Shown piece after piece: positions 1 to 55,452 of a stretch of 64,000 nucleotides of DNA. Source of the DNA: Octopus sinensis (Eukaryota); NCBI RefSeq assembly GCF_006345805.1, contig NC_043008.1, positions 53,568,001 through 53,632,000 of the forward strand, in the 5' to 3' direction. The notes below the pieces were generated by a model. That model made no database searches. It had not been told where the DNA came from and worked only from the letters and a program-made list of their open reading frames with translations. The position numbers and the translations under genes were made by a program. Within the stretch, counting starts at the first letter, position 1; every line of letters begins with the position of its first letter.

Positions 1-210
<210 letters not shown>

Positions 211-2386: not shown

Positions 2387-3520
2387 ATGATCCGGTTCTT
2401 GACTGAAGGCTGAGGGTTTCGAGTGTCCTGTCCGTGTTATTGTGTCGTCTTCTAGAGTTATACGTTCTTGTCCATGTTGTATTTTTCTACATACCTTAAC
2501 ATATATTCCAGGCGCCCCGTACCCCCCTTATCATAATGTGAGCACATATTCTTAATAATTGGTACGACTCTCTGTTTGTCTTTCTCTCTCTCTCATTTTT
2601 ACTTGATCTGTCCCCCTCTCTCTCTTTTCTCTCTACTCATCCTCTCTTTCTCTTCTCTTTCCTCTGATTCTTTGGTCTAGTCTTCCACTACCCTCCTATT
2701 TCTTTGTCTCGCTCTGCACTCACAGGTCATTCTTCGACACCCATCCCTTCTCCTCTCTGATTCCTTCTTTCTCTCTCTCTCTCTTTTTACTTGATCTGTC
2801 CCCCTCTCTCTCTTTTCTCTCTACTCATCATCTCTTTCTCTTCTCTTTCCTCTGATTCTTCCACTACCCTCCTATTCTTTGTCTCGCTCTGCACTCACAG
2901 GTCATTCTTCGACACCCATCCCTTCTCCTCTCTGATTCCTTCTTTCTCTCTCTTCTCTCTCTTTGTTGCGTTTGTCCCTCCTCTCTCTCTCTCTTCCTTT
3001 GCTTCTCTTTCTTTTCTTTTCCCTCTTCTCTGTCACGTGACTGTTGGCCGAAATCTGCCTTTCAGCTCCTGACCCTCGTCGTGTTAACATCGTTGTTTTT
3101 CGTCCGCCGCTATAAAGGCTTCTTCCAATGCGCCAGAGAAAAAATTTGTTTGCTTGTTATCAGTCGTAAGACACTTGTTGTTTTCACCGTTAATGCTTCT
3201 GTATTTCATGTTTCTGTATTCCATTATTGTTTTTTGTTTTTTTTTATATCTGTCCCTTTTGCTGTCCTGGTGTTCGTATGCATTCGATCCTTCTTCCAGG
3301 AAATCTACGCTTCCAGCTTAGTTTTTCTAATGCTCGTTGCTTAGTTTTTCTTGGAGGGCTGGCCGTGATCTAGTAATCTCAAGATTAATCAGCCGAAATT
3401 ACTACGATGATCCGGTTCTTGACTGAAGACTGAGGGTTTCGAGTGTCCTGTCCGTGTTTATTGTGTCGTCTTCTAGAGTTATACGTTCTTGTCCATGTTG
3501 TATTTTTCTACATACCTTAA
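2387..3520 (+). mobile_element. Non-coding Penelope-like/retrozyme-like element with about 113-bp terminal direct repeat
   Basis: 2387-2499 is near-identical to 3407-3520; pyrimidine-rich interior with a roughly 185-bp tandem duplication (about 2590-2950); (TA)n on both flanks; carries a permuted hammerhead. Confidence 0.7.
3361..3433 (+). ncRNA. Candidate non-circularly permuted hammerhead ribozyme
   Basis: Stem III TAGTAAT(3371-77)/ATTACTA(3398-3404), cleavage triplet AUC(3376-78), stem I TCAAGA(3379-84)/TCTTGA(3417-22), CTGAAGA(3423-29), stem II CTGA(3430-33)/TCAG(3389-92) with 2 extra nt before GAAA(3395-98). Confidence 0.65.
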
Positions 3521-3537
3521 TATATATATATTATATA

Positions 3538-3618: not shown

Positions 3619-4403
3619 CGAAATCAATACGGGACCTGGGGATAGACATGAGTGACGATGCATCTTTTTCTTCACACATCGCGAAGGTGGCGACAATGTG
3701 CAGACGACTCACTGGCTGGATCCTGAGGACATTCCGGACAAGAGACTGCGAGACCATGTTGACACTATGGAGGACATTTGTCCTAAGCCGCCTGGACTAC
3801 TGCTCCCAACTGTGGTCACCGCATAGTGTCAAACTAACCACAGAGCTCGAGACAATCCAAAGACATTTCACCAAGAGGATTTCCACCATGAAAGAAAAGA
3901 ACTATTGGGAGAGGCTTAGGGAACTCAATTTGTACTCCTTGGAACGAAGACGAGAGAGGTATGCAGTGATATACATATGGAAAATCCTGGAGGGACTAGC
4001 ACCAAATTTTGGAATTGAGAGCTGTTCCAATCCCCGTACAGGACGTCACTGTGTGATGCCAAAGGTCCCGTCTTCCACATCCAGGGTAAGGAGCAGATAC
4101 TGTAATAGCCTGGGGTTCAGGGGCCCTCAGCTTTTCAACAGACTGCCAAGAAAACTAAGAGATCTACATGATGCGGATGTTGACATTTTCAAAAAACATC
4201 TAGACAAGCTGCTTTCCGGGATCCCAGATGAACCCACTGCAAGGTACGAAGGTAACCTAAGGGCAGCAGCTACAAACTCTCTCTTAGATCAGTGGCCAGC
4301 CACGGCAAACTGGACTTAGAGAGGGTAGCAACAAGGGCGGTGCCCCAGCATGGCCTCAGCCGGATGGCTGAAACAAGTAAAAGAGTAAAAGAGTAAAAGA
4401 GTA
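3619..4403 (+). mobile_element. 5'-truncated CR1-group LINE (C-terminal ORF2 plus 3' UTR and tail)
   Basis: Open frame to stop at 4319 with RDLGI..., VLSRLDYCSQLWSP, LETIQRHFTK, YWERLRELNLYSLERRRER, FNRLP, FKKHLD, typical of the post-RT region of CR1/L2-group ORF2; ends in a stem-loop and (GTAAAAGA)n. The ORF track's N-terminal YIYI part is microsatellite read-through. Confidence 0.92.
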
Positions 4404-54543: not shown

Positions 54544-55452
54544 GCATATATTTTATTTATTACACTATTGTATGACTGAGCGCCCTCGCGTCGATTCGAT
54601 TCGATTCGTTCGTTTCGTTTCGTTCTTCTTCTCCAAGTACTGTTTTTATATATAATTATGACGCGAAACTCTTACCTCTTTGCTTTACCTTCCCTTCTTT
54701 CCCTATCTCTCTCTCACTCCTCCTCATCTCTCTCAGCCGCTTGTCTTCCTCTATCTCTTTCTCTCCCTCTCACTCCTCCTCATCTCTCTCACAGCCAGCC
54801 AACTCTTCCTTTTACACGCGGCCTTCTAACTGTAAACACACGGTTTTCCTTGCGCTCTCCAGAATCTTCCTCGTCTAGGCCAAAAAAGGCCCTTTTCGTT
54901 TGTTTTTCTTGTTTTGTTTTTATTTCTCGTATTATAATTTTTTGTAATTGTATTTTTATTTTGTATTTTATTTTGTATTTTTATTTGTATCGTTTTTACG
55001 TCCTGTTTTTGTTACATTTTTTCTTTCTTTGTTTTTACCCCTCTGCGAAGTAATTTTATTTAATTTCTTCGCAGGAAGGGCTAGTTCGGCGAGTCGTGTT
55101 CTGTCCTACCTTCGAAACACGCTGGAGTTGAACTAGGGACAGCTGATGAAGGGGATTTTTTCCTTATGTAGTTTGTCTTGTACTCTGTTTTTCGTTGTAA
55201 AAAAATGGTCTGTTCGATGCTTGTTTTTCCGTTTTCGTTTCTCGTTGAGTTCTACGTCTATTTGTGGTGTCCTGTACTCACGTATATATATTTATATATG
55301 CATGTATATATACATGTAGATGTAGGTACGTACATATAGGTATGTTTCTATGCATATATTTTATTTATTACACTATTGTATGACTGAGCGCCCTCGCGTC
55401 GATTCGATTCGATTCGTTCGTTTCGTTTCGTTCTTCTTCTCCAAGTACTGTT
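54544..55452 (+). mobile_element. Non-coding element with 101-bp terminal direct repeat (808-bp period), carrying a permuted hammerhead
   Basis: 54544-54644 matches 55352-55452; pyrimidine-rich interior; same layout as 2387-3520. Confidence 0.75.
55081..55154 (+). ncRNA. Candidate non-circularly permuted hammerhead ribozyme
   Basis: Stem III CGTGT(55095-99)/ACACG(55117-21), triplet GUU, stem I CTGTCC(55101-06)/GGACAG(55137-42), CTGATGA(55143-49), A, stem II GGGG(55151-54)/CTTC(55110-13), GAAA(55114-17); extra helix CTAGTTC(55081-87)/GAACTAG(55130-36). Confidence 0.72.

Follow-up and report, generated by a model that had tools for sequence, protein, structure and literature searches.

A probable split-core hammerhead ribozyme near the 3' end of a non-coding retroelement of Octopus sinensis

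The window, i.e., the whole stretch of 64,000 nucleotides analysed here, comes from Octopus sinensis (assembly GCF_006345805.1, contig NC_043008.1, positions 53,568,001 to 53,632,000 of the forward strand). It contains an insertion of the repeat family F1 and, at 55 kb, a motif of the family F2. The features are as follows, with positions counted from the first letter of the window.

2387..3520, + strand: F1 insertion, consisting of a 5'-truncated head copy and one full unit, with (TA)n flanks
2387..2506, + strand: F1 head copy, counterpart of 3407-3527 (97.5% identical), without the cut site and carrying CUGAAGG
2507..3279, + strand: interior of the F1 unit, non-coding, with a CT-rich tract
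3280..3293, + strand: 5' strand of helix P0, pairing with 3432-3446 (3289-93/3432-36 and 3280-87/3439-46)
3294..3356, + strand: P1 hairpin (3294-3303/3347-56), ending directly before G10.1
3357..3362, + strand: stem II strand 10.1-10.6 (GGCUGG), upstream of the cut site
3363..3370, + strand: 5' strand of helix X (partner 3409-3415), in the place reported for the stem I-stem II interaction helix of SGC and CSG hammerheads
3371..3384, + strand: block S, with a stem III strand, U16.1 (3377), C17 (3378), the predicted cut 3378/3379 and a stem I strand (3379-84)
3389..3404, + strand: block G, with the stem II strand UCAGCC, GAAA (3395-98) and a stem III strand
3409..3429, + strand: 3' strand of helix X, a stem I strand (3417-22) and CUGAAGA (3423-29)
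3430..3446, + strand: 2-nt linker CU and the 3' strand of P0
3447..3520, + strand: F1 3' tail up to the fixed element end, joining (TA)n
55038..55154, + strand: F2 motif of split design, with P0 55038-42/55150-54 and P1 55043-50/55067-74
Within the F2 motif, + strand: stem II 55075-79/55109-13, predicted cut after 55100, and CUGAUGA 55143-49

The full F1 unit of the window measures 1020 bp, compared with 769-906 bp in other arrays. F1 copies end at ~3515-3527 in (TA)n, have a variable 5' truncation, and form head-to-tail arrays of 769-1020 bp units, with the hammerhead motif ~140 nt from the fixed 3' end. A genome search with 3040-3520 gave 2,326 first-look candidates, the best 40 of which are 98-100% identical. 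An exact 18-mer common to F1 and its sister family F1b occurs 4,973 times in the genome (1,597 + 3,376), and the two families together comprise about 5,000 copies of a non-coding, tandem, (TA)n-inserting repeat. The sole long stop-to-stop frame of the F1 unit (162 codons) has no Pfam match, and the frame and Pfam check of the unit found no ORF with an N-terminal GIY-YIG and a C-terminal RT. Two interior motifs are presumably TATA-like (3111-16) and initiator-like (3160-65), both labels being putative. The 3' tail, we infer, is the priming site of reverse transcription.

The preliminary description had read the core strings UAGUAAU-C-UCAAGA (3371-3384), UCAGCC-GAAA-UUACUA (3389-3404) and UCUUGA-CUGAAGA (3417-3429) correctly from the sequence, and likewise stem III with 7 bp (3371-77/3398-3404) and stem I with 6 bp (3379-84/3417-22). 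Direct sequence comparison confirms that the F1 stems are unlike those of the copy at 55 kb. The window motif possesses all hammerhead core letters, namely C3 U4 G5 A6 G8 A9, G12 A13 A14 A15.1, and U16.1 H17. The descriptor of the motif matches only two sites in the 64 kb window, 3423 and 55143, against none after 100 rounds of dinucleotide shuffling of the window; a sample of 400 kb of unselected genome gave 1 strict match vs 0 in 5 shuffles. Of the 56 copies read in loci L001-L030, 54 have CUGAAGA, one has CUGAUGA and one CUGAAGG. CUGAAGG at 2403, once thought to say something about the core, is thus a private change of the head copy, and CUGAAGA is the family form. Rfam covariance models returned no hammerhead family in 3200-3520 at E up to 10.

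Stem II consists of 3357-62 paired with 3389-94, and not of the bases after CUGAAGA. It had been drawn earlier as UCAG/CUGA with two unpaired C, in a plain Z-Y-X order (type SGC). Both parts of that drawing are given up, as the partner that completes stem II lies upstream and the catalytic strand is interrupted after A9, before G10.1. A plain type-SGC hammerhead, whose stem II would use the bases right after CUGANGA, is highly improbable. Such a stem is possible with 4 bp in F2 and, if a CC bulge is allowed, in F1, and in several families the stem II strand has a possible partner in the G-rich P0 strand. However, the downstream pairing in the window copy is 6 kcal/mol weaker (-2.4 kcal/mol for UCAG/CUGA vs -8.3 for GGCUGG(3357-62)/UCAGCC(3389-94)), leaves C11.1 unpaired in F1, is reduced to a median of 1 bp in the sister family F1d, and is absent from those Naiad ends that were examined in the published records. 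Diverged copies have also lost it, and have kept the partner that lies 20-26 nt upstream of U16.1. With the corrected pairing, which gives a stem II of 6 bp including G10.1-C11.1, the former caveat of an atypical core vanishes. The upstream hairpin and the extra helix of the preliminary description both exist, but G3361-62 and G3357, which had been assigned to them, belong to stem II.

The choice of partner was examined with a descriptor blind to stem II, which gave 150 distinct instances; clusters with AT-rich upstream flanks were dropped, and 19 clusters were kept. The best run reached at least 5 bp upstream in 10 of the 19 clusters and downstream in 3, and in two control windows it did so in 3 and 1 of 19. 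An anchored partner-swap test was applied to 19 chosen representatives with 20,000 permutations and a stem II score out of 5. The upstream partner scored 4.53 in native and 3.40 in swapped combinations, with none of the 20,000 permutations as high, a count that is not a probability, the 19 copies being related and picked by the authors. In contrast, the downstream partner showed no specificity, with 2.89 native vs 2.78 swapped and 5,401 of the 20,000 permutations as high. The cluster-run test and the swap test have many sequences in common. A MAFFT alignment had been tried as the basis for pair counting; it misaligned stem II and the F2 group, and the anchored swap test was used instead.

Among the same 19 copies, stem II has three Watson-Crick pair types at each of positions 2, 3, and 5 and four at position 4, and the G10.1-C11.1 pair is kept in 17. 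Stem I, stem II, and stem III positions are paired in 15-19 of the 19 copies with several pair types, i.e., they covary; stems I and III served to place the cut, and stem II alone is an independent covariation test. The core letters are invariant in the 19 diverged copies, partly by construction because the copies were found by core-letter patterns. The reading of a non-circularly permuted hammerhead core under structural selection is upheld.

The order of the F1 motif from 5' to 3' is the 5' strand of P0, P1, stem II strand, helix X, block S, a 4-nt link, block G, helix X, stem I strand, CUGAAGA, and the 3' strand of P0. A9 leads into P0 and not into stem II, and P1 leads into G10.1. The predicted four-way junction would split the catalytic strand between A9 and G10.1. 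Closing the ends gives C, S, G, which is the circular class of SGC and CSG. A fold of type I or III spanning tandem copies was considered and rejected: the repeated unit keeps the non-circular order. The earlier drawing of the motif was incomplete, lacking both the closing helix P0 (3280-93/3432-46) and the setting in a high-copy retroelement. The minimum-energy fold includes P0, P1, and the upstream stem II (z = -3.23), and a pseudoknot-free fold gives no weight to stem I and little to helix X. P0 consists of 15 continuous bp in F1b; in F2, F5, and L217 it begins directly after A9, and its first pairs are A-U, C-G, and G-C. P1 of at least 6 bp and P0 of at least 5 bp are each present in just 9 of the 19 copies; both helices are clear in well-preserved families and weak in single worn copies, which many of the 19 are. 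F1 differs from its sister families in the unpaired CU after A9 and in having no kink-turn. It is a derived form, in which a longer stem III and a 4-nt bulge replace the loop of F1b, F1d, and Naiads, a loop that we take to be kink-turn-like.

In hammerheads, the metal site uses the phosphate 5' of A9 and N7 of G10.1, and the missing A9-G10.1 link therefore need not be fatal. P0 would stack on P1, with stem II stacked against the core on its A9-G12 side, and the usual active site may form in this way.

About one third of the copies have their 5' end just 3' of the predicted cut (C3378), approximately ten times more than have it just 5' of the cut. A pattern leaving out most intact copies gave 1,597 matches, from which 100 rows were listed and 30 loci fetched. 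Scripted 5' starts of the 30 loci fall in 3379-98 in 24 cases, in 3399-3412 in 2, and in 3359-78 in 4, but in three of the 30 the ungapped script misread an internal deletion or a gap. A count by eye of the 100 listed rows gave ~75, ~7, and ~8 starts for the same three intervals, the other 10 being left out of the count as intact, deleted, duplicate or complex rows. Starts 3' of the cut also occur in 13 of 100 rows of the complementary set, and therefore in ~35% of all copies. For F1 only, genome-wide matching gave 143 starts at 3384-86 vs 16 at 3374-76, in matched 3-nt windows that both contain TAAT, the second pattern being 10 nt longer. Among the first 100 matches for 3384-86, 16 are one-base deletions of intact copies, as are 5 of the 16 matches for 3374-76, and their removal leaves ~120 vs ~11.

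Copies scored as starting at or after 3379 are solos, and BLAST extended 0 of the 26 into the unit interior; of the 30 copies, 2 do continue there, and both start upstream of the cut. One solo-scored copy (L178) appears by eye to continue into interior sequence. Approximately two thirds of the copies run across the cut site, which indicates that cutting would be incomplete or reversed by ligation. In four sequencing runs guessed as RNA, assembled contigs are deeper from ~3380, some of them crossing the site; this depth step is not used as evidence because the DNA copy number steps there too.

F2, which is unrelated to F1, has the same 5'-end step at its own predicted cut. By eye, 31 rows start 3' of it over 29 nt and 4 rows start 5' of it over 21 nt, among 100 listed rows. 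The F2 insertion of the window (54545-55450, +) has a short head copy (~54545-54645) that is repeated at its 3' end (~55345-55450), and the fixed end of F2 therefore lies ~350 nt after the predicted cut, a larger distance than in F1. Short deletions or inversions inside several F1 and F2 rows have a breakpoint either at the predicted cut or up to ~20 nt 3' of it. Template jumping at a cut RNA end would be expected to give such breakpoints.

Taken together, the motif is probably a split-core self-cleaving hammerhead, carried close to the 3' end of a non-coding retroelement, which would depend on a Penelope-like element. The predicted cut 3' of C3378 coincides with the place where insertions begin. 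The start of new insertions directly after this site makes it likely that the ribozyme cuts itself in cells. Array transcripts would be cut after C3378 to give unit-length RNA, and a reverse transcriptase for which nicked (TA)n DNA serves as primer would start at a distance of ~140 nt 3' of the cut. With cut linear RNA as template, the enzyme would run off the 5' end and leave solo insertions of ~120-140 bp; on uncut or circularised RNA, read-through would give tandem arrays. F1 likely borrows its enzymes from a Penelope-like element. Reverse transcription in the Poseidon Penelope-like element (PLE) has been shown to start internally (PMC11167929), and the solo copies after the cut fit internally started reverse transcription of that kind on cut RNA. 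According to the available text of the same source, the Poseidon hammerhead is dispensable for insertion in vitro, with no reads ending at its site. The insertion pile-up at the predicted cut would be a genomic record of cleaved RNA as template, and bears on the role of hammerheads in such elements.

A conserved structure that is not cut in cells, with the 5'-end step arising from a transcription start or a reverse-transcriptase stop, is unlikely. Such a structure would account for the many copies and some public contigs that cross the site, and for the starts being spread over ~20 nt with no pile-up on 3379. In contrast, it leaves unexplained why the step stands at the bond predicted from the hammerhead in two families with unrelated stems, and why it lies inside the fold and not at the 3' border of the fold. 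Moreover, the core spacing pattern is enriched genome-wide, with 555 matches from many families vs 82 for the reversed pattern. A self-cleaving ribozyme that needs help is a similarly improbable reading. The helper would be a protein (the RT of the element or one that binds kink-turns) or another RNA copy giving the upstream half in trans. The kink-turn-like loop in the sister families and the tandem copies supplied by arrays suit this idea, and the PAc hammerhead of Poseidon is reported to cleave only with protein (PMC11167929). However, all strands of the F1 motif are present in cis within 167 nt in a domain closed by P0, and F1, which has no kink-turn, still shows the 5'-end step.

More families were taken from the genome pattern search because the unselected sample contained only one strict match. 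Naiad-like 3' ends in this genome match the published octopus Naiad consensus sequences, and of 30 Naiad-like RT remnants, 10 are followed by the motif on their own strand in the fetched flank. As far as their text is accessible, Craig et al. 2021 (PMC8557442) describe no canonical hammerhead in Naiads and flag Naiad_Ovul just as 'HHR_half_core'. In the supplement of that paper, the 3' end of Naiad_Ovul has by eye the full split fold with stem II GACACC/GGUGUC. The 3' ends of Naiad_Aacu and Naiad_Anas likewise have the split fold with stem II GGCUCC/GGAGCC (one mismatch in Aacu), and a further Naiad record has it with GGCCCC/GGGGCC. In these and other Naiads the split fold lies ~70-100 nt from the 3' end. 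F1 also resembles Naiad PLEs in its (TA)n targets, partial tandems, and 5' truncation, but has no reading frame and no BLAST likeness to the Naiad 3' region. A single BLAST match between the two (L201) is a separate opposite-strand F1-type insertion. The listed RT matches contain no intact Naiad; all are broken, with a best open frame of 320 aa, in contrast to the close likeness of the best F1 copies (98-100%). The 3' ends of nematode Naiads (records before Naiad-3_Nbra, Naiad_Hcon, and Naiad_Asuum in the supplement) have the hammerhead order C-S-G without a split, a permutation known until now from two metagenome sequences.

The F1 motif shares with the type-SGC (HRIMA-1) and CSG hammerheads of Eckert et al. 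2023 (PMC10085705) the non-circular topology class and the core order S, G, C. Stem I and the stem II strand are joined by a short link in both, with 4 nt here (UUAA 3385-88) and typically 3 there, and a helix joins the far sides of stems I and II, which is helix X in F1. In the available text of that study, CUGAnGA and the adjacent stem II strand are taken as inseparable; in F1, block C is not intact and two helices stand between CUGAnGA and the stem II strand. The SGC and CSG examples described there come from metatranscriptomes and metagenomes, none from the genome of a known organism, whereas thousands of copies of the F1 motif are present in the genome of an animal. The non-LTR retrozymes of Cervera and de la Pena 2020 (PMC7229834) and Li et al. 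2026 (10.64898/2026.07.22.740005) are, like F1, non-coding tandem units with one hammerhead each and a link to Penelope-like elements. On the other hand, as reported in those two sources, non-LTR retrozymes have type I hammerheads in units of ~170-400 nt, compared with the split non-circular form in units of 769-1020 nt in F1. Expression as circular RNA is a further mark of non-LTR retrozymes. The motif would act like a type-SGC hammerhead in a retrozyme, yet fails a defining feature of each. Core insertions occur naturally in F1 and in the variants of Perreault et al. 2011 (PMC3088659), but those in the accessible text of that study are of one or two nucleotides (A6a, U13a, 2a/2b), with no helices seen between A9 and G10.1. 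A search of the text of the open-access literature found no description of the split form.

It is rather probable that the motif represents a seventh natural wiring of the hammerhead, in which a four-way junction takes the place of the A9-G10.1 link. This wiring would cut in animal cells and would be the missing ribozyme of Naiads and of a large class of dependent retrozymes, and nematode Naiads that keep the unsplit CSG form would mark a path between wirings. If true, it overturns the assumption that the CUGAnGA strand and stem II form one block, moves non-circular hammerheads from environmental RNA into animal genomes in thousands of copies, and explains the apparent absence in Naiads of the ribozyme found in other Penelope-like elements.

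The genome RT matches and the Pfam search contained no autonomous partner of F1. A random sample yielded a 5'-truncated Penelope-like element in (TA)n on the - strand (L083:9341-10000 and L084:1-1827; G000:C5:40029341-40031827). It has an uninterrupted frame of 829 codons with an RVT_1 match, and in its 3' region a minimal type I-like hammerhead whose core reads UUGAAGA. We take it to have a C-terminal GIY-YIG and to belong to Neptune. It is a possible mobiliser of F1.

The F1 stretch is also present in sequencing runs of three organism codes (A, B, and C), and the family is therefore probably common to related species. The repeat search of the window is dominated by microsatellites, and Rfam on the whole window gave microsatellite-driven miRNA matches among the 150 of 396 that were listed. 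A frame fragment at 3620-4316 (+), right after the (TA)n tract, is separate from F1 and has no Pfam match; it is presumably the C-terminal part of a LINE-type RT frame. Finally, a tRNA-like Rfam match of 34 bits at 1-64 (-), cut by the window edge and not called by ARAGORN, is probably the head of a SINE.
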